A stretch of DNA of 32,000 nt from Flavobacteriaceae bacterium. GTDB taxonomy: Bacteria > Bacteroidota > Bacteroidia > Flavobacteriales > Flavobacteriaceae. Shown piece after piece: positions 3,601 through 24,198 of this stretch. Every line of letters starts with the position of its first letter. The first letter of the stretch is position 1. The notes beneath the pieces are model-generated. The model worked only from the letters and a program-made list of their open reading frames with translations, did no database searches and was not told the DNA's origin. The translations under genes and the position numbers were made by a program. The DNA lies in assembly GCA_965224465.1 (NCBI GenBank), contig OZ245049.1, positions 150,001 to 182,000 on the forward strand, in the 5' to 3' direction.

Positions 3601-4207
3601 CTATTGTATTGGTGAAATAGCAGAACTAAACGGAACGCTTTGGGGGATTACAGCAGCTGCGGAGGAGCAGGCAAAAGTGTTGTCTAAAGTTATTTATGGA
3701 GACCCGCATGCCTATTACAAAGGCAGTGTTTTTATGAATATATTAAAAGCAAAGGATGTGCATATCTGTTCTATAGGACTTGTAGATCCTCCAGATCCAG
3801 AAGATAAAGACTATCAAATTATAAAAATGGAAGATTTGAGTAGACAGTATTATAAAAAATGTGTGGTCTATAAAAATAAACTAGTAGGTGCTGTTTTAGT
3901 AGGGGATCGTACCGAATTCTTATCCTTTAAAGAATTAATTGAAAACAGTGCTGAACTCAATGATGTCCGTGATACTTTACTGCGTCCTAATGGTCTTAAA
4001 AAGGAACCTTTAAAAGGGAAGTTGATATGCTCTTGCGCCAATGTAGGTCATCTGAATATAGAAGAAATAATAAATAAGACAAAAAATTGTACCCTTGACC
4101 AAGTGATGAAACATACGGGTGCAGGAACAGGATGTGGAAGTTGTAAACCAGAAATTATAGCATTACTAATGATTAAAAAGCAAGAGAATGGAAATAGAGT
4201 ATCTTAG
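683..4207 (+). CDS. nasA: Assimilatory nitrate reductase: a Mo-bisMGD catalytic module fused to an FAD/NAD(P)H pyridine-nucleotide oxidoreductase module and a C-terminal BFD-like [2Fe-2S] domain
   Basis: N-terminal CSYCGVGCGV is a 4Fe-4S motif typical of molybdopterin oxidoreductases. Two Rossmann motifs follow (IIVIGAGAGATQF, VVIIGGGLLGLEMA). The C-terminal CSC...GCGSC pattern is BFD-like. The start was moved to the internal ATG at 683 (MNSYTKSIC) rather than the TTG at 629. Confidence 0.85.
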   Translation: MNSYTKSICSYCGVGCGVLIKSNEHTNEIDLIGDTTHPVNKGMLCSKGRNLHHTVMDTSDRLLQPQMRWNRESPLEEVSWDTALERAAGVFKGLINNYGPDAVGFYVSGQLLTEEYYIVNKLVKGFLKTNNIDTNSRLCMSSAVVAYKKTLGEDSVPICYDDIELADCFFIAGANPAWCHPILFRRLEAHKQSNPDVKIVVVDPRETASASIADLHLQINPGTDVYLYNAIAKCLIETDQIDASFITDHVDGFEALKKQVFQYSVEEIAEICGVSKDDIQLAASWIGEATGFISMWTMGLNQSSIGVNKNVALINLSLITGKIGKPGNGPFSLTGQPNAMGGREVGGLSSMLAVHKSYENPIHVDEVARFWNVSGLSTKQGLTATEMFDALFEGKLKAIWIICTNPTVSLPDARKIEAALRKAKFVIVQDISNASTTVHYADLVLPAAGYMEKTGTMTNSERRVNLVQKIIDPPGNALPDAEILWKFAAKMGWEKQFPYQNYEEIYEEYKKMTHGTNMDVSGISYDVLRTQGGVQWPYTSEKMKSTKRLFENNTFYTDSGNAAVYGVDPQLQSEPLSENYPFILLTGRVRDQWHTMTRTNKVSALNKHAPQPFVEIHPSDAKVLEIEEDDLVEVIGKRGNVKLKARICYTIKKGVLFIPMHWGKLFQNDLGRANNMTSVILDRESKQPDYKYAAVQLFKHRPKAKRIIVIGAGAGATQFVKSYRALGDTSSSIDVFSKEMHPFYNRVLLPHYLTGEKTWEDLEKLREQDFKRLGITVHIGVSIDLIDKKKKFVIDSTGKTHLYDTLIVATGSRAFVPPNFPKEAANFITIRQRGNIELIQERLQPNNDVVIIGGGLLGLEMADALLSIGMQVHVIQIDERLMGLQLDKQSSKLLKRKILAKGIHLYMNDEVLAFNGAPEITSVTLRSGQKLECHLVITAIGTRPNIELLKAADIECNRGVLVNQYLQSSDKDIYCIGEIAELNGTLWGITAAAEEQAKVLSKVIYGDPHAYYKGSVFMNILKAKDVHICSIGLVDPPDPEDKDYQIIKMEDLSRQYYKKCVVYKNKLVGAVLVGDRTEFLSFKELIENSAELNDVRDTLLRPNGLKKEPLKGKLICSCANVGHLNIEEIINKTKNCTLDQVMKHTGAGTGCGSCKPEIIALLMIKKQENGNRVS

Positions 4208-8540: not shown

Positions 8541-10663
8541 GTGTGCCCAGCATGGGCATCTTTTAACTACGGAAAGGTAGTTAATTAATCTAGAGGGTGC
8601 AAGTCCCTTATGTGCAGGAGTAACGTTCTGAAACATTAGTAAGTCGCAAGGGTGAAAACCGTGAGGTTTTATCTGAAGATTATTTGCGATTGAGGAATGA
8701 GTAAATACCCTACAAAGCTCGGTACTGACGAACAGAAACCGTATACAGAGGTATAATTACTTGGGTAAGTAAACACATCATTGCAACGCCCAAAAGAATA
8801 CTAAAAGGGTAGTTATGTAGATACGGCAGTGATTGAGTGAACTGTAGCGAAGTGGAACTCAAGAACACCTCTAAAAAATAAAAAGGAGGTGAATAAAGAA
8901 GATGTCATTACCTGGGGAGGTCTCCAAAGCCAGGAGTTGGTTCTATGGAGAAGTCAGCAGACGTCATAGTACCTATGGGAAACGAGTTGAGGAAAGACCT
9001 CAGATGGTCTCACAAATAGGGAAGGACAGAACATTAAATTACGTTGAAATTCAATTAGGATGCCTAGCTAGCCTAGTTTTAAACCAACAGGAGTACCCGA
9101 ATTATTTAACCTATGATTGACAAAGTACTAGAAGCTACCAACCTTTTTAAAGCAGCACGTCAAGTGAAGCGAAATAAAGGAGCTAGCGGAGTTGATGGTA
9201 TGAACCATCCGAGAAGAAATATTCCTAAGAAAGACTATTTATCTTCGGATGCTCTATGTGACCGATTTAAATAAATAAAACCGTCACATAAAAGTAACGG
9301 AACTTTCAACTTATATAGTTGAAAACCGTTCAGACATACTAACAACGATCCGTAAGAATAGCTATGTTCCAAACTCAATCTTAGGAGTAAGCATTCCAAA
9401 AGGCAAGGGTAAAACCAGACTTTTAGGAATCCCAACAGTAGTAGATAGATGGCTACAGCAAGCGGTAAGCCAACAATTAATGGTTCAGTTCGAATTTGAT
9501 TTTGAGCCACTTAGTTTTGGGTTATTCACAGCTTTTTATTTTAGGGAGTTCATGAGCTCCCGTTGGTCGGTTTAGACCACAAAAGAACATTCAAAAAGCA
9601 GTACTACAAGCTCAACAGTATATCAATAATGGTTACCAAGATATTGTAGATATTGACCTTAAAGGGTTCTTTGATGAAGTGGACCATTGTATCCTACTAC
9701 AACTTATTTACCACAGGGTAAAATGTCCAACAACCATGCGTTTAATCCGAAAATGGCTTAGAGTTCCTATTTTAATAAATGGGAAACTTCAAAAGCGTAG
9801 AAAAGGAATCCCGCAAGGAAGCCCAATTAGTCCCTTACTATCTAACATAATGTTAGACGTCTTGGATAAAGAAATGAAAAGAATGGGTTTACGGTACGTC
9901 CGCTACGCAGATGATTTTAGCATTTACGCAAAGACCAAACGTGAGGCGAAACAAATAGGGAATACGTTGTTTGTCTTCTTAAAAGACAAATTAAAACTAC
10001 CTATAAATAAAGCCAAAAGTGGCATTCGTAGACCCGTAAACTTTGAGTTACTAGGACATGGCTTTGTGCCAGTCTACAAAAAGGGAGTAAAAGGACAATA
10101 TATACTAGTAGTAGCAAAGAAAAGTTGGGCAAAGTTTAAGCGTAACCTAAAGAGTATTACCAAGAAAACCAAACCAATGTCATTGTCGGAACGTTTAGAA
10201 CGGCTTAATCAAGTCTGCCGAGGCTGGATGAATAATTACCGTTTAACCAACATCTATGCAAAAGTTAAAAAGCTAGATGAGTGGATAAGAAATCGGTTGC
10301 GATATTGTATTTGGCACGATTGGAAAAAACTCGAACGAAAACGTAAAAACCTAATCAGATTAGGAATAGAGAATGGACAAGCATACGCTTGGAGTAGAAC
10401 CAGAATGGGAGGATGGGCAGTAGCCCAAAGTCCAATTTTAAAGACTACCATTACCAAATCTAGACTTGTACGAAAAGGGTATAAACCTTTGATAGATTAC
10501 ATTAATAATACGCAGACTTCAATTTTTTGAACCGCCGTATAGGTTCATGAGAATTAGAAGTATTTTTATACTTATAATTAGAGATGACCGAGCGAAGCTT
10601 TCGTACGTACGGTGGTGTGAGAGGCGCAGTGGCAACTATTCAGTTGTCACCCGTCTACTCGAT
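8541..10663 (+). mobile_element. Full-length bacterial group II intron (~2.1 kb) with a decayed reverse transcriptase/maturase ORF and no En domain
   Basis: The 5' end is GUGUGCCCAGCAUGGG (compare Ll.LtrB, GUGCGCCCAGAUAGGG). A domain V-like sequence, ACCGAGCGAAGCUUUCGUACGUACGGU, lies at ~10596-10622. Domain VI has a bulged A at 10657, 7 nt from a terminal ..GAU. The RT ORF sits in domain IV. Confidence 0.9.
9113..10530 (+). pseudogene. Group II intron RT/maturase, disrupted by at least two frameshifting insertions
   Basis: Three collinear pieces lie in three frames. Piece 1 is MIDKVLE..GASGVDGMN (9113-9205, frame 2). Piece 2 is VTELSTYIV..IPKGKGKTRLLGIPTVVDRWLQQA..FEP (9294-~9510, frame 3). 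Piece 3 is RFRPQKN..IPQGSPISPLLSN..RYADDFSIYA..RGWMNNYR (9556-10530, frame 1). Confidence 0.85.
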
Positions 10664-10801: not shown

Positions 10802-13657
10802 TTAGTTTCCTGTTATTCCGTTTATAAATGTTTCCACAAATTCAACAATTTGTTTTAATATTTTATCTCCTAATTTTTTTCGTTTCAAAACAGACGGTTT
10901 TTCGCCTTCTATTAAATCCAACACTTCATCTCGCAAAGGTTCTCGTTCTGCGTAGAGATAGTTTTCTATTAGTTTCTGTGTTTTTTCTTCTGATAGATTT
11001 TCGTCTGTAGTTAGCTTTTTAAATGCTTTCTGCTGTTCCTCATTCCAAAATACTTCAAAGGCTTCTGGAATGTTGTCTGTATCTTCTATCGTTGGTAAAT
11101 TTTCTTCTATAAACTGCTGAATTAACTCTCGTTTACTTCTTAGGTTTACTTCTGTATTCAATAAGTTAGAAATTTCCTGTTCGGTTTTGGTTGCGTCTTT
11201 TTGCGTGTCCGATTTTAGTTTCATTAATAACTGAATAATGTAATTCACATTTATTTCGTCTCGGTGAATTAACTCCAATTCAAAATCTACATCTTCTAAA
11301 ATAGAAACTTTCTCAACAGCATTATCGCTTTTCACTTTTTGCCACAAATCCAAATACTTGCTTTTGTAATCTTCAAAAAGTTGTTCGGTCATTGCCAAAT
11401 CTTCCCATTTAAAATCTGAAAAAGAGTTTAGTATGTTCCGAATACGCATTAATTGACGAAACGCCTTAATAAATGCCAACTCATCATCTTCTGAAACTAA
11501 AGCGTTAACGCTGTTTACTGTTGGAGTAATCTTGATTAATTCGATAAAAGCTTCATTAAATTTGTTTACATAATCAACATAAGGTTCCATTATAATTACT
11601 TCAATGGCTTCTTTATTACTAAACAATGTTATGGCTTCATCTGTAGCCTTTTTTAAGTTTCTAAAAACCACAATATTTCCTTGCGATTTTTGTTCGTTTA
11701 GTATTCTATTGGTTCGTGAATAGGCTTGTATTAATCCGTGATATTTTAAGTTTTTATCTACATACAATGTATTTAGCGGTGGACTGTCAAAACCTGTTAA
11801 AAACATATTTACCACTAATAAAATATCAACTTTACGTTCTTTTACTTTCTTAGAAATATCATTGTAATAATTATAAAACGACTGACTGTCTTTGGTAGAA
11901 AACTTAGTGCCAAACATTTTGTTGTAATGTCCAATATATTCGTCTAATTTTTCTCTACTATGCACGTTCATTCCATACAAAGCAGGAGATTCTTCTACAA
12001 CCGAAACTTCTTCTGGAATAAATCCGTTGGCATCTGCATCCTCTTCATTGGCTACATAACTAAAAATGGTTGCAATTTTTAAGTTGTGTTTGCCTTCTTC
12101 TTTTTTCTTCTGAAATAAATCGTAGTATTTTATTAAGTTTTTAACACCACTTACACAAAACATTCCTGTAAACTCTTTTTGATGCGTTTTACGATTGTGA
12201 TTGGCAATAATATAATCGGTAATTTTATCCAAACGCTTTTCACTATCCATTAACTCTTTAGTGTCAATGTCTTCTACTTCAATGTCAATTTCGGTAGCAG
12301 ATTCTTTTCGTTTGTAACGACCTACATATTCTACCGAAAATTTGAGTACATTTTCATCTTTTATGGCATCTGTAATGACGTATTTATGCAAACACTCGCC
12401 AAATAGTTCTTTGGTAGTACGTTTTCCTAATTCATTTTTAACGGCATTGTCTTTAAATATAGGCGTTCCTGTAAAACCAAACATCTGGTTGTTATGGAAA
12501 AAGGCTTTTATTCTGTTGTGGGTTTCTCCAAATTGAGAACGGTGACACTCATCAAAAATAAATACAATTCGCTCATCTTGTAAAGCCTTCATTTTAGACA
12601 AATACTTGGCTTTGCTAATGGCTGTATTTAATTTTTGAATGGTGGTTACTATCAGTTTTGTATCGTCACCAAATTGTTTGACTAACGATTTTGTATTGTC
12701 TGTTCCATCAATACATCCTTTGCTAAAACTGTTAAACTCTTTGGTGGTTTGATAATCTAAATCTTTTCTATCTACCACAAAGACCACTTTTTTTACTTGT
12801 GGCATATTCATAATTATTTGGCTTGCCTTAAAAGAAGTTAAGGTTTTACCCGAACCTGTGGTATGCCAAATGTATGCGTTGTTGTTAGAGTTTTCTACTT
12901 GATTTACTAAGGTTTCTACTGCATAAAATTGATAGGGTCTAAGCACCATTAATATTTTGTGCGTTTCGTTTAGCACAATGTACTTGCTTATCATTTTTGA
13001 AATATGACAAGGCTCTAAAAAATCGCTTGTAAAACCGTTTATAATATTGGTTTGACGTTTATTGGCTGCATCTGTCCAAAAGAACGTTTGTTTAAAAGAT
13101 TGATTTCTGTTATTGGCATAATACTTTGTATTTACACCATTACTAATTATGAATATTTGAACATATTGAAACAAAGCCGATTTTGCACCAAACGAATGCC
13201 GTTGATACCGATTTATTTGGTTAAAGGCTTCTTTCATTTCCAAGCCTCTACGCTTTAGTTCTATTTGTACCAATGGCAAACCATTGATTAGTAAAGTAAC
13301 ATCATAACGGTTTTTGTAACTACCTTCCATAGTAACTTGGTGCGTTACTTGAAACTGGTTTTGACACCAAAAGTCTGTGTTTAGAAACTCAAAATAGAGG
13401 TTATCGCCATTATCTCGCTCAATATGCTGTTTGGCGCGTAGGGTTTTGGCTTTTTCAAAAACAGAACCTTTGCTGAGCATATTTAAAACACGTTCAAATT
13501 CTTTGTCTGAAAACGTAATGTTATTGTGCTTTTCTAATTGTGTTTTTAGATTGACTACTAAAGCGTTTTCATCTTTAATAAGCACTTTTTCGTACTTCAA
13601 TTGTTGCAATTGAGCCACTAATTGATTTTCTAATACTTGTTCTGGTTGTTTGCTCAT
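10802..13657 (-). CDS. hsdR: Type I restriction enzyme R subunit
   Basis: 951 aa. Helicase motifs are present: WHTTGSGKT (motif I) and FDECHRSQ (motif II). It is the last gene of the hsdM..hsdS..hsdR operon. Confidence 0.95.
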   Translation of the reverse strand: MSKQPEQVLENQLVAQLQQLKYEKVLIKDENALVVNLKTQLEKHNNITFSDKEFERVLNMLSKGSVFEKAKTLRAKQHIERDNGDNLYFEFLNTDFWCQNQFQVTHQVTMEGSYKNRYDVTLLINGLPLVQIELKRRGLEMKEAFNQINRYQRHSFGAKSALFQYVQIFIISNGVNTKYYANNRNQSFKQTFFWTDAANKRQTNIINGFTSDFLEPCHISKMISKYIVLNETHKILMVLRPYQFYAVETLVNQVENSNNNAYIWHTTGSGKTLTSFKASQIIMNMPQVKKVVFVVDRKDLDYQTTKEFNSFSKGCIDGTDNTKSLVKQFGDDTKLIVTTIQKLNTAISKAKYLSKMKALQDERIVFIFDECHRSQFGETHNRIKAFFHNNQMFGFTGTPIFKDNAVKNELGKRTTKELFGECLHKYVITDAIKDENVLKFSVEYVGRYKRKESATEIDIEVEDIDTKELMDSEKRLDKITDYIIANHNRKTHQKEFTGMFCVSGVKNLIKYYDLFQKKKEEGKHNLKIATIFSYVANEEDADANGFIPEEVSVVEESPALYGMNVHSREKLDEYIGHYNKMFGTKFSTKDSQSFYNYYNDISKKVKERKVDILLVVNMFLTGFDSPPLNTLYVDKNLKYHGLIQAYSRTNRILNEQKSQGNIVVFRNLKKATDEAITLFSNKEAIEVIIMEPYVDYVNKFNEAFIELIKITPTVNSVNALVSEDDELAFIKAFRQLMRIRNILNSFSDFKWEDLAMTEQLFEDYKSKYLDLWQKVKSDNAVEKVSILEDVDFELELIHRDEINVNYIIQLLMKLKSDTQKDATKTEQEISNLLNTEVNLRSKRELIQQFIEENLPTIEDTDNIPEAFEVFWNEEQQKAFKKLTTDENLSEEKTQKLIENYLYAEREPLRDEVLDLIEGEKPSVLKRKKLGDKILKQIVEFVETFINGITGN

Positions 13658-13660
13658 AGT

Positions 13661-13693
13661 TAATTACGAATTTGAAATTATGAATTACGAATT
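13661..13693. repeat. ATTACGAAT-type palindromic module a (TAATTACGAATTTGAAATTATGAATTACGAATT)
   Basis: It is an inverted repeat (32/33) of 15381-15413, and part of it is complementary to 14031-14060. It spans the stop codon of the four-helix-bundle gene. Confidence 0.9.
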
Positions 13694-14031
13694 GTTCGTT
13701 GGATACTTCCAATAATTTTCAATAATTCGTCTATATCTTTTAAAAGGCTTTCGCTTTGTTCTTTGCTTATATAATCTGTGTCTGTTAATAATCGTATCCA
13801 ATAATGGGTTTCTCTGGCTTCTTTGTATGCAATGGTCAATTTGGCAAAAAAATCTTTTTTACTTTGTCCGCCAATGGCTTCTTCAATATTTGCACCTATA
13901 GAAGTTCCCGAACGTAATAATTGTTTACTCAATACAAATTCCTTTTTTTCTGTGCACAAGTATTGATACACTTTTACAATTCTCACTGCAAAAGCATAAC
14001 TTTTTTCTTGTACTACATTCTCTTTTTTCAT
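13678..14031 (-). CDS. Four-helix-bundle protein (23S rRNA intervening-sequence protein / Avd-like family)
   Basis: 117 aa and all-helical. The motifs SGTSIGANIEEA and AYKEARETHYWIRLL are typical of this family as I recall it. Confidence 0.8.
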   Translation of the reverse strand: MKKENVVQEKSYAFAVRIVKVYQYLCTEKKEFVLSKQLLRSGTSIGANIEEAIGGQSKKDFFAKLTIAYKEARETHYWIRLLTDTDYISKEQSESLLKDIDELLKIIGSIQRTIRNS

Positions 14032-14060
14032 TCGTAATTCGTAATTAAAAATTCATAATT
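14031..14060. repeat. ATTACGAAT-type palindromic module b (TTCGTAATTCGTAATTAAAAATTCATAATT)
   Basis: It abuts the start codon of the four-helix-bundle gene. Its TTCGTAATTCGTAATT stretch pairs 15/16 with AATTATGAATTACGAA in module a. Confidence 0.85.
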
Positions 14061-14062
14061 GA

Positions 14063-15394
14063 TTACACAAACATTTTTTGCAACAAGCCTTTTTTGTAGG
14101 TTTTACTTTGTTCTATTTGCTGATTAACGGCATTTATTTTAGTATCTATTTTGCTTAGAAAATTGGCTATTTTGGTTTGTTCTTGGATTGAAGGGAGTGA
14201 TACTTTTATTTTTAACAAATCCTTAGTGTAAATTGCGGCAACACTTGTTGTTCCTGTTGCTAATTGTCTGAGTTTTTGCAAACCAACTATTGAATTAAAC
14301 CAATAATTCATATAAAAATTATTTTCAAATTTTATTCTCATTAAATTGGAGTTATAATAAGCCTTATCTAATTCATTTCTCCAAATAGAAACTTTTCCGA
14401 CTAATTCCAATGTGTTACGAGTATTAAAGAAAAGATCTCCATATTTCACTAAATCTTTTTCATCAATTACTTCAGAATTATTAATGTATTGTATCTTTTT
14501 TAAAGAAATATCTCCTCTACTTAAATTTCCCATTTTAATTAGAGGATTATTAGTTATAGTATCTGAGTTTGTATAATTACCTCCTAATTTAAAATTGATT
14601 AATAGCTCCCCCAACTTCTTCACTTCCCAATCAGGAAAGTCTTTTCCATTCTCATTTTTAAACCGAATGTAATTAGGAATTACGACTGATGAATTACGAG
14701 TTGTAGCCTCTATTAATTCGTCATTACCCAATTCGTAATTCGTAATTGATTCATTCGTAATTGATTTTTCGCCAACGGCAAAAATCTTTTGCATCATTCC
14801 TTTTTTGTAACTTTCTAATGCGTTTTTCTTGTCTTGTAGTTGGCTTATTTTTTTGTCTACAATGCTAAAGAAATGGGCTATTTTTTGTTGTTCGGGTAGG
14901 GTTGGGAATGGTAAAGGGAGTTTAAGTAAGCTTTCATTTGTAATATTCATTCTATCAAACCTTGCACCATAATTTGCTATAGATTTTAAATACTTATGCC
15001 AAAATGTAGTTTCAAAATATTGTTCGAAAAATGTGAGGTTTCCATTATTAAATCTTAAAACAGTGTAGAGAGGAGACATAACACCTTGTTCAAGATTGTT
15101 TCTTTTTAAAGGTCCAACAGGAGCATTGTTAGATATTCTTGGGTTGTAAATAAAATCGTCAATTTCAGCAATATAATAATTGTTTAAATTAACACTATTT
15201 GCTATTTTTTTATCAAAATAATCTTCTTGGTTTATAATACCTTTTTTTGCCGAATTGGTAAGAACTAAAGAAACTGAAAAATCAGTATTCTTTTTAGTTA
15301 TTCTTTGACCAATTTGTTCCAGTCTTTTCACTTCCCAAACCTCTTTAAATTCAGGAAATCGAACTTGTGGTATTTTGTTTAATTCGTAATTCAT
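14063..15394 (-). CDS. hsdS: Type I restriction enzyme S (specificity) subunit with an atypical ~37-aa insert after the central conserved region
   Basis: 443 aa with two target-recognition halves. Each half is followed by a conserved helix (LPEQQKIAHFF..KKGMMQKIF and LPSIQEQTKIANFL..KKGLLQKMF). Confidence 0.9.
   Translation of the reverse strand: MNYELNKIPQVRFPEFKEVWEVKRLEQIGQRITKKNTDFSVSLVLTNSAKKGIINQEDYFDKKIANSVNLNNYYIAEIDDFIYNPRISNNAPVGPLKRNNLEQGVMSPLYTVLRFNNGNLTFFEQYFETTFWHKYLKSIANYGARFDRMNITNESLLKLPLPFPTLPEQQKIAHFFSIVDKKISQLQDKKNALESYKKGMMQKIFAVGEKSITNESITNYELGNDELIEATTRNSSVVIPNYIRFKNENGKDFPDWEVKKLGELLINFKLGGNYTNSDTITNNPLIKMGNLSRGDISLKKIQYINNSEVIDEKDLVKYGDLFFNTRNTLELVGKVSIWRNELDKAYYNSNLMRIKFENNFYMNYWFNSIVGLQKLRQLATGTTSVAAIYTKDLLKIKVSLPSIQEQTKIANFLSKIDTKINAVNQQIEQSKTYKKGLLQKMFV
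14677..14763. repeat. ORF-less ATTACGAAT-type palindromic element inserted in frame within hsdS
   Basis: GAATTACGACTGATGAATTACGAG faces AATTCGTCATTACCCAATTCGTAATTCGTAATT..CATTCGTAATT across a 14-nt spacer. It is translated as KSITNESITNYELGNDELIEATTRNSSVVIPNY. Confidence 0.85.
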
Positions 15395-15413
15395 AATTTA
15401 AAATTCGTAATTA
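15381..15413. repeat. ATTACGAAT-type palindromic module e (inverted copy of module a)
   Basis: Its reverse complement, TAATTACGAATTTTAAATTATGAATTACGAATT, matches 13661-13693 at 32/33. It contains the hsdS start codon and its first codons (MNYEL). Confidence 0.9.
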
Positions 15414-15512
15414 GTTGCGTGAGGGATAGTAGTGGCATCCTTTTTTGTTTTTTCGCAAAAAAGATATAACGGATAGCCCGACCCTTGGGGCACGCCCAAA
15501 ATATTTGTTTGC

Positions 15513-16364
15513 TTATCCATCATTATTTTTTTTAGGGTTTACTTCTTTGTTGGTATTTTCTAAAAAGGTTTTAGCATTTATAGGGCTTACTACTTTTTTA
15601 CCAGTTCTTGCTTCTAGTTCTAACTTGGCAACCTTGGCAACATTGCCACCTTGTTTTGCTACTGTTTTGCTTTCTGTAAAGTTTTTTGGGTTTACTGCTT
15701 CCGATATATCTTTGGTAGATGCTTCTGCTAGCATATTTAATATGAGCTCGGTATTGGTCATATTATCTCTTAGATTTTCTTTTTTTAAGCCTTTTAAAAT
15801 TTTGTACTCTTTGGTGGTTTTACCTGCCCAACTTTGGGTTATTATATTGGTTAAAGTAGCAAATTGTACTCCTTCTTTTAAGCCTGTTTTTTTCCATTCA
15901 TCTGTCAGTTCCTTACGTATTTCAATACTTTTTAAACGTTGGTTTATCCAATTTTCAGAATACCCTAATTCTAAGTATTGTTTTAAAGCTCTATCAATAC
16001 TAAGTTCAGGGTCTTGTATTTCGTCTAGCCGTTCAGATGCTATTTGTGCCAACCAAAGCTTAAATGGCTCTGCTTTTGGTGATGGTATAGATTGTATGAG
16101 TCTAAATAGTTGTTTGGTATTAGCGACATCTGTTTTTCGCATTTTACCATCTTTAGCCAACATTTTCAAACCGTGACAATTCGTCACGGTTTCATTTCCT
16201 TCTGCTTTAAGTCTTTGCTTTAATTTTCTCCAATAGGCAGTTGGGTCTTTACTATCGGTTAATACCGTAATTACATCAACAATAGAAATAAACCAATCTT
16301 CTTTTTCTGTGTCCCAAATAGTCCTTACGCTACTGTCTTCAAATATTTTAATTTCGTTTTTCAT
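15513..16364 (-). CDS. Bro-N domain / DinD-like (DNA-damage-inducible protein D family) protein
   Basis: 283 aa. The N-terminus (IFEDSSVRTIWDTEKEDWFISIVDVITVL) is Bro-N-like. The C-terminal half resembles DinD (KILKGLKKENLRDNMTNTELILNMLAE). It lies between hsdM and hsdS. Confidence 0.7.
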   Translation of the reverse strand: MKNEIKIFEDSSVRTIWDTEKEDWFISIVDVITVLTDSKDPTAYWRKLKQRLKAEGNETVTNCHGLKMLAKDGKMRKTDVANTKQLFRLIQSIPSPKAEPFKLWLAQIASERLDEIQDPELSIDRALKQYLELGYSENWINQRLKSIEIRKELTDEWKKTGLKEGVQFATLTNIITQSWAGKTTKEYKILKGLKKENLRDNMTNTELILNMLAEASTKDISEAVNPKNFTESKTVAKQGGNVAKVAKLELEARTGKKVVSPINAKTFLENTNKEVNPKKNNDG

Positions 16365-16373
16365 CTTAAATAT

Positions 16374-17945
16374 TTAAAAAGGTGTGTCAATATTCAGTTC
16401 TTTACATAATGCAATCAATTCTTTATCGGTTTCTTGCATACTGGTTTCTAATGTTTTTAAGGTGTTAGAAACTTGGGCAATATCAACTGGTTCTTCCTCT
16501 TCAAAAGTGTTTACATATCTTGGGATGTTTAAGTTGTAATCGTTTTCGGCTATTTCTGTTAAAGCGGCAACATAACTGTATTTATCCTTTGCGGTTCTTT
16601 CTGTATACGTAGTAATAAGGCTTTCAATATTTTTTGTAGAAAGGGTATTCTGTGTTTTTACTTTTTCAAAATGTTTACTGCTATCAATAAACAATATATC
16701 TTCTGGGTTTTCTCTACATTTTTTAAATACTAAAATACAGGTTGGTATGCTGGTGCCATAAAACAGATTGGCAGGTAAACCAATAACGGCATCTAAATAA
16801 TTACGGTCTTCGATTAAGTATTTACGAATGTGTTGTTCTGCTCCACTTCTAAATAATGCTCCGTGAGGTAGTACAATTGCCATTGTTCCGTTTTCTGCCA
16901 AATGGTGAATCATATGTTGTACAAAGGCGTAATCGGCTTTAGACTTTGGTGCTAGTTTTCCGTATTGGCTAAAACGGTCATCACTTGTAAAAAGAGAATT
17001 TGCAGACCAATGTGCCGAAAATGGAGGATTGGCAACTATGGCTTCAAAACGTTCCTCTAAATGTTGTGGGTGTTCTAAAGTGTCTTCTTGTTTTATGTCG
17101 AATTTACGGTAATGAATATCGTGTAAAATCATATTCATTCTCGCCAAGTTGTAGGTAGTACGGTTTAGTTCTTGTCCGTAAAAATTGGTGACGCTTTCTA
17201 CTTCTTTGGCAACACGCAGTAGGAGAGAACCCGAACCACAAGTGGGGTCGTAAACCGATTTTAGTTTGGTTTTTCCTTGGGTTACCAATTTAGCCAACAC
17301 AATACTTACTTCTTGTGGTGTGTAAAATTCACCTGCTTTTTTTCCTGCTCCACTTGCAAACTGCCCGATTAAGTATTCGTAAGCATCTCCTAAAACATCA
17401 ATTTCGGTATTTTCAATTTTGAAGTCTATCTTGTCTAAATGAGAAAGTACTTTTGCAATAATTTCGTTTCTTGTTTCTGGAGATTTCCCTAATTTGGTAG
17501 AGTTCAAATCCATATCTTCAAACAGATTGTCAAAATCTTCTTCACTTTCCGTTCCCATTGTACTGAGTTGGATATTGGTCAGAATCTTTTGTAAATCTTC
17601 TAAAATGAAGTTAGAAATACCTTCTACATCAGAATTTCCTCTTTTAGCAAGTTGGCTAAACAATTCGCTAGGTTTTAAGAAGTAACCTAGTTTCTCAACT
17701 GCTTCTTCTTTTATGGCTTTAATGTATTCTTGTCCGTTTTCGGAATCTTCTTTTATGTTGGTAAAAAGGATTCCGTCTGGTTTTAGAATTGTATTGGCAT
17801 ACAAGTTCATTTTTTCAGATAGATATTTGTAGAAAATAAAACCCAAAATGTAATCTCGAAACTCGTCCGCATTCATTTTTCCTCTAAGCGTATTGGCTAT
17901 ATTCCACAGTTGTTGTTCGAGTTGTTTTTTTTGGTCTTCACTCAT
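16374..17945 (-). CDS. hsdM: Type I restriction enzyme M subunit (N6-adenine DNA methyltransferase)
   Basis: 523 aa with the AdoMet motif YDPTCGSGSLLL and the catalytic motif IVANPPFS. Confidence 0.95.
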   Translation of the reverse strand: MSEDQKKQLEQQLWNIANTLRGKMNADEFRDYILGFIFYKYLSEKMNLYANTILKPDGILFTNIKEDSENGQEYIKAIKEEAVEKLGYFLKPSELFSQLAKRGNSDVEGISNFILEDLQKILTNIQLSTMGTESEEDFDNLFEDMDLNSTKLGKSPETRNEIIAKVLSHLDKIDFKIENTEIDVLGDAYEYLIGQFASGAGKKAGEFYTPQEVSIVLAKLVTQGKTKLKSVYDPTCGSGSLLLRVAKEVESVTNFYGQELNRTTYNLARMNMILHDIHYRKFDIKQEDTLEHPQHLEERFEAIVANPPFSAHWSANSLFTSDDRFSQYGKLAPKSKADYAFVQHMIHHLAENGTMAIVLPHGALFRSGAEQHIRKYLIEDRNYLDAVIGLPANLFYGTSIPTCILVFKKCRENPEDILFIDSSKHFEKVKTQNTLSTKNIESLITTYTERTAKDKYSYVAALTEIAENDYNLNIPRYVNTFEEEEPVDIAQVSNTLKTLETSMQETDKELIALCKELNIDTPF

Positions 17946-21973: not shown

Positions 21974-22816
21974 TTAAATACATAATTTTATCAGTTTACA
22001 ATCCATTAATTTTGCTGGATTGTTAGGGTCTTTTATCTGCTTATTTTCAATACTAAAACCACTTTCTTTTATTCCTTCAAGTTTAGTTCTACTTTCTTTA
22101 GGAAAACTATTGTATTTATCTGTTGGAATTATACCAACCAATTCAAATTCTTTGTCGGTTGGTTTGTGTAAGTAATTGAATACTTTTCTAGGGTTTTCAA
22201 TTTGCCACATTTCCCTAATTCTCAAGTTTGTTATTCCTAAAGGGTCAACTTGATTAACTCTTCCTAATTCTTTAGTATTTGCGAAAACAACATCTGGAAT
22301 AGTTTCTATGCCGTCTGAAATAGTCGTTTTTATTCTTTGGTATGTTTCGTGTTTGGCTGCGTACGAACTACCATAAACCATCCATAATGATTTCAGACTC
22401 GTATCTGTAGTGTGTCCAACACAGTAAATTAAATCTTTAACTGTCCAATCTTCACATTCCTTGCATTCTTTCGTAATCATAGGACTTGTATGTCTCAAAT
22501 CAGTTTTTGGATAACTGCTATTTAAAGCCAAACTTGAATTTGCACTTTGAGTTTTCTTAACTTCAATAGCATCTCCTCCTTTTATCATAATATCAGGTGG
22601 ATTATTTTGGGAACCTAACCAAGAAAATTCTTGATTATAAGTCTGCATTTTTTTTGTTTCGTTTGTTAATCCCAATGTTCCAGCAAACGCATCCTTGATA
22701 TAATTTTCAAGTGAGTCTCCCATTCCATTTGCTCGATTCCTGCCCGAATACATTACACGTATTTCAAAATTCTTTTGATTTACGATATTATAAATTGCTT
22801 CTAAAATATTTGTCAT
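21974..22816 (-). CDS. Type II restriction endonuclease, NgoPII-like (predicted GGCC)
   Basis: 280 aa. Its start overlaps the stop of the upstream HaeIII-like methyltransferase gene by 4 nt (ATGA). [22 protein letters not shown] matches my recollection of the NgoPII family. Confidence 0.65.
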
Positions 22817-24198
22817 AGGGCAACTGCTTCTTTAGTTTTTTGAGTTTGTTTTGCTTTTTTCGTTGTGATTTCGTTTGCCTTTATTTGTTGCATTATACTA
22901 TTTGCAAGAAATTTAGCCAAATTAACAGGAACTGCATTTCCAATCATTTTGTAACCTGCTGCAATTTTTTTGTAATGAAAAATAAAGTCATTAGGAAATG
23001 TTTGAATTCTTGCACATTCTCGAACACTTAAGCGTCTATATAAATGTTCTTTTCCGGGAACGAAAACACGAACATTTTTTTCAATAAATTTCATTTTTGG
23101 TGCTTGTGGATGAATAGGAGCGTGTCGTCCACCTGCTTGGATAGTATAAGATTGTTCATCCCAATCTCTAACACGGTTTCTTGACATAAACATTGAAGAA
23201 AAACTTCCAATCATATATTCGTGATTAGGAAGAATACAATTTTCGCCATTTGTATTATTATACTCTAAAGCAGGTAAAACACCTTCTTTTAAATCCGAAA
23301 TAGCTGTTTCAAGAGTAACTTTTGGAAATGTTTCAGTTGGAAATTGGTACTTAAAATTTAAGTCTTTTCTAATTCCAATAAAAAATATTCTTTTTCGGTC
23401 TTGAGGTACATTGTAATCAGATGCGTTAAGCATTTGAAAAGAAAGTTCGTAACCAACTCCTGCATTTCTGAAAAGTTCTTTTATTCCTTCAAGAGCTTCT
23501 GTATGTTTTGAAATTAGCATTCCACTCACATTTTCGGCTAAAAAGAATTTTGGTTGTTTAGCTTCTAAAATTCGTATAAAATCATAAAACAATTGACCTC
23601 TTTTGTCTTTAATTCCTCTTGCAGAACCAGCTTCACTCCAACTTTGACAAGGAGGACCTCCAATTATTCCGTCACATTCAGGAACTTCATCTGCAGGGAT
23701 ATTTACAAGACTTCTTTTGTCAAGAATTGTATTAGGGTGATTTTTTTCATAAGTTTCCCAAATTTCTTTGTCATATTCATTTGCCCAAACAACATTGAAT
23801 CCTGCTTTTTGGAAACCTAAATCAAGTCCGCCTGCCCCTGCGAAAAAAGATGCAATTTTCATATTTAATTGTGTTTGAAGTGATTTATTAAGTATTCTAC
23901 GATATTCTGCTTTTTCTTCTGCAACTTGTAAAAGTTGTTTTGTACAGTTCGTTTCATAAATTTGTTTTCCGATTTGATCAGTAACATATTCATTCTGTAA
24001 TTCTTTAAGATTGAGTTTGAAAATTTCCGCAAGTTTAGGTAAGCGTTTTTTATCAAAATCTCGTTTCCCATTCTCGATTTTACTCAAATTTGCAGAATCT
24101 AAACTTAGTTTAGCTGCAAGTTGAGTCAAAGTCAATTTGTTTTTTGTTCGTAAAAGTCGGATGTATTCTCCAAATGTGGTATTCATAAGACTTGTCAT
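22813..24198 (-). CDS. DNA (cytosine-5) methyltransferase, HaeIII/NgoPII-like, with an N-terminal XRE-type HTH domain
   Basis: C5-MTase motifs are present: [12 protein letters not shown] (I), GGPPCQSWS (IV), LAENV (VI), [10 protein letters not shown] (VIII) and GNAVPV (X). Long stretches resemble M.HaeIII as recalled. The first ~70 aa ([25 protein letters not shown]) form an HTH. Confidence 0.9.

Follow-up and report, generated by a model that had tools for sequence, protein, structure and literature searches.

What is a palindromic repeat doing inside an otherwise intact restriction gene? The question is raised by a 32,000-nt stretch of DNA from a Flavobacteriaceae bacterium (GenBank assembly GCA_965224465.1, contig OZ245049.1, positions 150,001 to 182,000 of the forward strand), referred to here as the window. 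It carries on the minus strand a type I restriction-modification operon composed of hsdM, a gene with a Bro-N domain, hsdS, a four-helix-bundle (4HB) gene, and hsdR. The hsdS gene, which encodes the specificity subunit, contains an extra in-frame segment in which runs of AATTACG face runs of CGTAATT, and a cassette consisting of the 4HB gene and its flanking repeat arms lies between hsdS and hsdR, 0.6 kb downstream of the insert. Our analysis indicates that the insert is probably a tolerated, in-frame member, lacking an open reading frame (ORF), of a family of heptamer-armed hairpins related to the neighboring cassette, which resembles an intervening sequence (IVS). It would then be selfish DNA carried along as a passenger and would not reflect adaptation of the enzyme.

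hsdS contains an in-frame segment made of facing heptamer arrays

The hsdS ORF encodes a genuine HsdS, in an operon with hsdM and hsdR. Its product matches Pfam Methylase_S (PF01420, E = 2.2e-19) in two stretches corresponding to the two target-recognition domains, and a homologue search returned about 5,300 proteins. An AlphaFold model built from a 70-sequence alignment (mean predicted local distance difference test (pLDDT) score of 89, predicted template modeling (pTM) score of 0.82) displays two long conserved coiled-coil helices (residues 166-205 and 403-441) and, as assessed by Foldseek, resembles the solved S subunits PacII S, 1YF2, EcoKI, and EcoR124I. A Pfam scan found hsdM, hsdS, and hsdR all intact, with full domain sets.

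The boundaries of the extra segment were set by alignment of 16, then 69 HsdS homologues. At the end of the central helix, these proteins display the pattern ...KKGxMQKxF-SQE-(I/L)RFK..., or a 10-residue variant, in which F205 and R244 are invariant. The F205-R244 spacing is 4 residues in 32 homologues, 10 in 35, 18 in one, and 34 in one, vs 38 in the window. An equivalent linker is therefore not common among homologues, 67 of the 69 having 4 or 10 residues. The insert is translated as AVGEKSITNESITNYELGNDELIEATTRNSSVVIPNY (residues 206-242), between ...KKGMMQKIF and IRFKNENGKDFPDWEVKKLGE, and extends from the end of the central helix (F205) to the start of the second recognition domain (I243-R244-F245). 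The original prediction, made from the sequence alone, of a palindromic insert lying in frame in hsdS is thus confirmed by repeat statistics, homologue boundaries, and an intact ORF. The translation that it gave was correct, and the extent (14677-14763) had to be revised to a slightly wider 14669-14779, i.e. 111 nt. We also considered a fusion of two half-hsdS genes across an intergenic hairpin, which is ruled out by the short continuous linker in 67 of the 69 homologues.

On the sense strand, from 14766 to 14669, the element reads AATC-AATTACG-AATGAATC-AATTACG-AATTACG-AATTGGG, then a loop, then TCGTAAT-TCATCAG-TCGTAAT-TCCTAAT-TAC. It is preceded by a 13-nt lead, GCCGTTGGCGAAA, which among all fetched loci occurs only in the lineage carrying the hsdS insert (contigs L121 and L161, described below). 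Exact ATTCGTAAT occurs nine times in the 32-kb window vs 0.58 expected, a count reached by none of 100 shuffles, and the nine copies are confined to four clusters between 13663 and 15411, i.e. one on either side of the 4HB gene (inverted relative to each other), one in the hsdS insert, and one in a solo arm at the hsdS start. When one mismatch is allowed, 14672-14761 contains seven modules, of which three face one way and four the opposite way. Eleven inverted repeat pairs were found in 14600-14850, nine of them in the insert region (e.g. 15 nt at 93% complementarity). No target-site duplication is evident by eye in the insert flanks, which were compared without a DNA-level empty site. The insert is a palindromic repeat, in frame in a conserved gene and without counterpart in homologues, as is characteristic of Rickettsia palindromic elements (RPE) and intragenic miniature inverted-repeat transposable elements (MITE).

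The frame is open through the insert in only one of six cases, that of hsdS, and 4.6% of shuffles with the same bases are open. An array of (AATTACG)n has no stop in any of its three frames, each of which gives cyclic ITNYELR, and (CGTAATT)n contains a TAA every 21 nt in every frame. Because of the latter, a complete hairpin survives in a gene only with a degenerate right arm. Indeed, the hsdS frame continues through the insert because (AATTACG)n has no stops and the TAA module of the right arm reads TCA.

The arms of the insert match those of the neighboring 4HB cassette

The insert had been predicted to be an ORF-less copy of the palindrome of the neighboring cassette, and its arms bear this out. 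Insert and cassette agree at 31 of 36 bases in the left arm and at 28 of 35 in the right arm, with none of 500 shuffles reaching either value. The match takes in non-periodic bases, namely AATC at the left end and ACAA before the right arm. The terminus AATCAATTAYGAAT was found 18 times in the fetched loci, mostly at element termini in unrelated contigs. In the hsdS frame, the right arm of the insert reads ACA ACT CGT AAT TCA TCA, and the 3' end of the 4HB gene, in the same frame, reads ACA ATT CGT AAT TCA TAA. The stop-bearing module is TCATAAT in the cassette, TCATCAG in the window insert, and TCATCAT in L121.

The cassette itself has an IVS-like architecture, since in its predicted RNA fold (-86.9 kcal/mol, z = -4.6) the arms are paired and the ORF lies in the loop. 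Left AATTACG and right CGTAATT arms are present in all five 4HB cassettes inspected (the window, L246, L073, L023, and L064 from a Desulfobulbia). The best 120 homologues of the 4HB protein are 79-100% identical to it (79-96% without the window's own protein), come from named sources that include Flavobacterium, Chlorobi, and Chitinophagaceae, and end in (I/L)RNS in about half of the cases. The closely related cassettes in L246 (2978-3375), L073, and L023 are squeezed in among housekeeping genes, with narrow gaps of ~20-30 nt. Their neighbors are an oxidoreductase and an AMP-binding enzyme, and, as judged by eye for the latter two pairs, dapF-like and GNAT acetyltransferase-like genes, and cinA-like and lptD-like genes. 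The 4HB cassettes are therefore not tied to restriction systems. As for the mobility of the cassette, the 4HB protein P0150 is found on many contigs, but in all 24 contigs read it occupies the same place, with no sign of several insertion sites.

Whether the insert descends from an ORF-bearing copy was considered next to these matches. Two strings, 'DEL' (GAC GAA TTA) and 'T(T/I)RNS', read in the frame of the 4HB gene and were considered as a relic of its ORF in the loop; both, however, resemble the heptamer, and 4% (12/308) of all right arms have ACAA in front of them. Read in the 4HB frame, the right arm gives no more than a hint that the insert descends from a copy with an ORF. Among the matches listed in our scans, hairpins without an ORF are far more numerous than those with one. 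The ORF may have been lost after a complete cassette had landed, or an ORF-less hairpin may have inserted directly.

Heptamer-like codons at the junction may have been the target at which the element entered, through recombination or a template switch that involved a nearby arm. In P0027 (contig L242), the uninterrupted relative whose first recognition domain is closest to that of the window, the junction reads TTC TCG CAG GAA TTA CGG TTT and contains a perfect AATTACG, which two other relatives do not have. This junction also lends itself to another explanation, in which heptamer-like codons (GAA TTA CGN) were expanded in place by replication slippage, independently of the cassette. Heptamer repeats are over-represented in bacteria (PMC4692102), and solo AATTACG arrays are common (105 among the genome matches listed), including in frame in UvrC and PheT. 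Slippage cannot, however, create the inverted arm, which therefore did not arise by tandem-repeat slippage alone. In addition, the order of modules and the non-periodic features of the arms are the same as in the cassette, unrelated copies likewise have the terminus AATCAATTACGAAT, and the insert contains only 2.4 perfect tandem units. Growth in place is thus very unlikely.

The insert recurs at the same position in a second lineage

A peptide search with a 43-residue version of the insert returned a single candidate, the metagenomic protein P0121, encoded on a 662-bp ENA contig (L121) and a 2435-bp JGI contig (L161). The hsdS of L121/L161, whose product is 84% identical in amino acids to that of the window, carries the same insert at the same site, indicating that the insertion is old and inherited. 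DNA identity between the window and L121 is 88% in the flanking conserved region, 100% (17/17) in the 17-nt lead at 14763-14779, 84% in the left arm, 65% in the loop, and 94% in the right arm. TCA in place of TAA is common to both inserts, and the loop residues differ between the two lineages (G/K, I/D, E/T, and T/K). In L161, hsdS has decayed, with a truncated first recognition domain, a poly-C frameshift, and 16 extra bases after IRFK.

L161 further contains, at 929-1333 on the minus strand, an ORF resembling IS200 and REP-associated tyrosine transposases (RAYT; REP, repetitive extragenic palindrome), with the motif PNHLHTIV. Like the 4HB cassette of the window, it stands between hsdS and hsdR, but it has no heptamer flanks. 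The gap between these two genes appears to be a site at which small selfish genes land.

The uneven drift between the two lineages bears on whether the hairpin acts at the RNA level. The 121-nt RNA around the insert folds at -26.6 kcal/mol (z = -2.17), and four of 200 shuffles are as good, so that the 'strong' mRNA hairpin initially proposed was an overstatement and 'moderate' is a better description. The hairpin could nevertheless be a processing, pausing, or attenuation site, e.g. a target of RNase III, that splits or down-regulates hsdS or uncouples translation of its halves. The arms are kept (84-94%) while the loop drifts (65%), and the hairpin scores z = -2.2 in the window and z = -3.8 in L121, alongside the IVS-like fold of the sister cassette (z = -4.6). 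IVS that encode this protein family are substrates of RNase III (PMC4990558), and intergenic hairpins of the AATTACG family abut stop codons more often than controls (71% vs 13%), a pattern suggestive of a function at transcript 3' ends. On the other hand, the stem is AT-rich, imperfect, and only moderately better than shuffles, and an Rfam scan matched no family to the insert or to the cassette arms. Moreover, cutting inside the ORF would destroy the sole hsdS copy, and the right arm is degenerate, as expected if coding needs override pairing. We therefore consider an RNA device unlikely.

Repeat DNA is also present at the start of the gene, where ATG AAT TAC GAA TTA (MNYEL) is encoded by an AATTATG-AATTACG arm fragment. 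The homologue P0027 has the same start, ATGAATTACGAATTA (L242, 620-650), which suggests that repeat DNA was recruited as the 5' end of hsdS. The start arm, the insert, and the cassette arms might serve as direct and inverted repeats through which one half of the gene is deleted or inverted, with a half-size S subunit or an OFF state as the outcome. The hsdS start (ATG AAT TAC GAA TTA) and the insert (ACG AAT TAC GAA TTG) match at 13 of 14 bases in the same frame, and a deletion between them would place the second recognition domain and its conserved region in frame with a start codon. Such a role is highly improbable, considering that the repeats are only ~11-30 nt long and AT-rich, that there is a single hsdS in the window, and that no variant arrangement was observed, L161 representing decay and not switching. 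No recombinase was found by Pfam among the 12 larger ORFs in the window, several of which have no Pfam match, the other ORFs being unscanned.

The insert is predicted to form a surface linker after the central helix

In the AlphaFold model, only residues 210-239 have a pLDDT below 50, and they form coil. The central helix (166-205) equals its C-terminal partner helix (403-441) in length. As the insert is placed after the helix, which ends at F205, and not within it, the model does not support a change in coiled-coil spacing, contrary to what had been proposed from the sequence. The companion proposal, that HsdS may tolerate the insert as a linker, is plausible given that the insert is in frame, is modeled as a low-pLDDT coil, and leaves the frame open in a second lineage as well. 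The product would probably be a full-length HsdS with about 34 extra hydrophilic, disordered residues in a surface linker, the coiled coil that sets half-site spacing being unchanged.

The site at which the insert lies is the pseudo-symmetric counterpart of the natural termini of the HsdS chain, and circular permutation of S subunits is tolerated. Four homologues (P0101, P0091, P0003, and P0051) have unrelated extra segments at or near the same linker. The segment of P0101 is LSELGLSGLEDDRINNAEENPTINKSYKSKFRQ, and that of P0051, a protein that appears circularly permuted relative to other HsdS homologues, consists of 28 residues after RFK. Pseudo-symmetry with the termini, tolerance of circular permutation, and unrelated inserts in homologues all fit a permissive site.

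The same features bear on a functional re-tuning of the enzyme, in which the 34 extra residues would alter the geometry between the recognition domains and thereby the spacer or flexibility of the bipartite target. In EcoR124I and EcoR124II, the length of the central conserved region sets the spacer, and in the window the insert adjoins this region, with the frame open through it in two lineages. Re-tuning is nonetheless quite unlikely. According to the model, the helix ends at F205 and equals its partner, and the insert is a coil with pLDDT <50; the two lineages differ in their loop residues; the site corresponds by pseudo-symmetry to the N and C termini of HsdS, at which the chain is already open; and unrelated inserts are tolerated at or near it in the four homologues above. 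The insert is probably of little consequence to the restriction enzyme. The HsdS linker that follows the central helix can be viewed as a permissive insertion site of use in engineering.

The insert belongs to a widespread family of hairpins

The distribution of the hairpins was assessed in a scan of one genome per species for the pattern GAAT-N4-5-AATTAYGAATTACGAAT (at least 120 loci) and in a scan of metagenomes for hairpins with a cassette-type right arm (at least 120 loci). The genome matches listed comprise 105 solo arrays, 27 short hairpins, and 14 wider pairs, and a 4HB ORF lies next to the array at only three or four of these loci. They come from Cyanobacteria, Bacteroidota, Ignavibacteria, Acidobacteria, Chloroflexi, Planctomycetes, and Spirochaetes, as well as from Verrucomicrobia, Desulfobacterota, Elusimicrobia, groups of the candidate phyla radiation (CPR), and an archaeal (Methanophagales) metagenome-assembled genome (MAG). 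The metagenome matches listed comprise 131 hairpins. Of 89 hairpins, 63 (71%) lie within 10 nt of a stop codon that ends an ORF of 80 aa or more, vs 13% of random intergenic controls. Only six stretches from viral contigs contain the hairpin, and there is therefore no sign of phages as a vector. No paper was found that contains the exact repeat strings, as DNA or peptide. The family is apparently very widespread and undescribed.

Several variants were seen in these loci. Solo AATTACG runs are read in frame (ITNYELR...) in unrelated MAGs, in genes for UvrC (L003, ~4081-4108, where the domain is split in two), PheT (L024, 2326-2353), and a DUF5916 protein (L030, 3673-3697). In one subfamily, found on QMCD/QMCE metagenome contigs (L126, L128, L131, L140, L147, L152, L155, L162, L163, L166, and L173), the AATTACG arms of the hairpin enclose an additional inner stem that is GC-rich (GGCTACGCG...CGCGTAGCC). 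In L010, L094, L123, and L151, as judged by eye from the flanking sequence, hairpins lie directly beside apparent tRNA gene ends.

As a tentative possibility, the AATTACG hairpins and the 4HB (S23p) cassettes could form one cross-phylum selfish family related to rRNA IVS, in which the ORF-bearing form is autonomous and the hairpins are non-autonomous. It might spread without a transposase, perhaps via an Avd-like 4HB protein or at the RNA level, settling beside stop codons and occasionally in genes. Near-identical hairpins occur across lineages, some of them enclose a 4HB gene, and a more distant copy with the same arms is present in a Desulfobulbia MAG (L064). The literature found on PF05635/TIGR02436/S23 concerns only diversity-generating retroelements, cas genes, CPR rRNA, and Coxiella. 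To our knowledge, PF05635 proteins have no known role outside diversity-generating retroelements, and the means by which rRNA IVS move has long been an open question. Both problems would become testable with a family that has members with and without an ORF, a defined terminus, and a strong preference for gene ends. The insert taken singly is of modest importance, and the cross-phylum family is the more interesting lead. If this reading is true, the hsdS insert would be the first documented genic landing of the AATTACG hairpin family.

Points that weigh against a tolerated passenger

Several findings weigh against the view that the insert is a neutral, tolerated passenger. First, among the matches listed, none of the ~130 other metagenome hairpins (with only the hsdS of L161 excepted) lies in an ORF open for 120 nt to either side, and none of the 27 genome hairpins lies inside an ORF, making the hsdS case exceptional. 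These copies of the family were counted in other genomes and metagenomes, the source genome being outside the coverage of the scans. Second, the sole other lineage with the insert has a decayed hsdS, and tolerance by an active enzyme consequently rests on the intact ORF of the window. Third, the arms are better conserved than the loop, which may reflect constraint on the hairpin itself. Fourth, the low pLDDT of the insert stems in part from a lack of aligned homologues and is no proof of disorder. Finally, the nearest uninterrupted relatives are only ~55-61% identical at the protein level, and there is no close DNA-level empty site, which leaves the exact ends of the insert and any target-site duplication undefined.

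Genomic context of the insert

The features of the insert, the cassette, and the operon are collected in Table 1. Three other elements were seen in the window. A Flavo-1 RNA motif (RF01705, 61.7 bits vs a gathering score of 42) lies at 15409-15487 on the plus strand, antisense to the operon, between the Bro-N gene and hsdS, and adjoins the solo AATTACG arm with the hsdS start. Its presence points to a flavobacterial host. A group II intron occupies 8655-10530 on the plus strand, with Rfam domains D1-D4 at 8655-8998 and an ORF at 9679-10530 with reverse-transcriptase and maturase domains. This ORF encodes 283 aa and matches the RVT_1 profile from position 91, suggesting possible truncation or a frameshift. 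An NgoPII-type type II restriction endonuclease (21974-24198, minus strand, Pfam E = 1.3e-119) adjoins a 461-aa ORF and, together with the type I system, marks the region as a defense island.

Table 1. Coordinates of the insert, the repeat arms, and the genes of the operon (positions in the window)
Feature	Position	Strand	Description	Evidence
Extra in-frame segment of hsdS	14669-14779	minus	37 codons (A206-Y242); 111 nt replacing 9 nt ('SQE' of relatives), net +102 nt	Alignments
Lead	14767-14779	minus	13 nt, GCCGTTGGCGAAA; outside the repeat element	
Left arm of insert	14727-14766	minus	AATC + AATTACG, AATGAATC, AATTACG, AATTACG, AATTGGG	
Loop (central part)	14700-14726	minus	TAATGACGAATTAATAGAGGCTACAAC; least conserved part	
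Right arm of insert	14669-14699	minus	TCGTAAT, TCATCAG, TCGTAAT, TCCTAAT, TAC; degenerate, without in-frame stop	
Solo arm	15380-15412	minus	AATTACGAATTTTAAATTATGAATTACGAATTA; holds hsdS start codon and first codons M-N-Y-E-L	
Cassette left arm	14030-14062	minus	Begins 2 nt after hsdS stop; supplies 4HB start codon	
4HB gene	13678-14031	minus	PF05635, 23S rRNA intervening-sequence protein, 117 aa	Pfam E = 3.2e-31
Cassette right arm	13661-13693	minus	Holds last 4HB codons and stop; ends 4 nt before hsdR start	
hsdS	14063-15394	minus	Type I restriction-modification specificity subunit, 443 aa, intact	Pfam, homologues, AlphaFold, Foldseek
hsdM	16374-17945	minus	523 aa	Pfam HsdM_N + N6_Mtase, E = 1.8e-112
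hsdR	10802-13657	minus	951 aa, domain set complete	Pfam HSDR_N, SWI2_SNF2, T1R_D3-like, EcoR124_C
Bro-N domain gene	15513-16364	minus	Between hsdM and hsdS	

Comparison with known systems

Over-representation of heptamer repeats in bacteria is documented and little studied (PMC4692102). Like REP, their hairpin-forming doublets (REPIN), and short tandemly repeated repetitive (STRR)-type repeats, the elements described here are short, abundant, mostly intergenic palindromes or 7-nt arrays near gene ends. Unlike REP/REPIN, they are facing arrays with a defined terminus, AATCAATTACG, and are near-identical across many phyla, whereas REP are lineage-specific. A Pfam scan of the 12 larger ORFs in the window detected no RAYT gene.

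There is also a likeness to the length variation of EcoR124I/EcoR124II and to phase-variable hsdS genes, in that repeats are located within or beside the central conserved region of a type I specificity gene. In contrast to spacer control in EcoR124I/II, the modeled insert is after the helix, whose length would be unchanged. It likewise differs from phase-variable and shufflon hsdS systems in having 2.4 perfect units, a single hsdS in the window, and no recombinase detected by Pfam in the 12 larger ORFs.

The cassette has the architecture of the 23S rRNA IVS of Coxiella, which has the same protein family and a stem of paired repeats enclosing the ORF, and is cut by RNase III (PMC4990558). As in the 23S rRNA IVS of Coxiella and Leptospira, the inverted repeats of the cassette pair into a stem around a PF05635 ORF, but the elements described here lie in an mRNA operon and a coding gene instead of 23S rRNA helices, and their arms are heptamer repeats. 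IVS without an ORF also exist, which parallels the ORF-less hairpin.

The insert in hsdS, for its part, finds its nearest parallel in RPE and intragenic MITE. In-frame insertion of palindromes into genes is known, with the Rickettsia elements as the extreme case (PMC10969869, citing Ogata et al. 2000). The insert resembles RPE in being a short palindrome, in frame in a conserved gene, that adds a peptide at a permissive site and leaves the gene otherwise intact. It differs in its unrelated sequence, its host phylum (Bacteroidota, as judged from the Flavo-1 RNA and the nearest homologues), its arms derived from a 7-nt unit, and its lack of a known transposase-bearing parent. Moreover, genic insertion is the rule for RPE and appears to be rare here (0/~130 other hairpins among the matches listed). 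Compared with a MITE in the strict sense, the inverted arms are present, but in place of a transposase-bearing parent the ORF-bearing form encodes only a PF05635 4HB protein.

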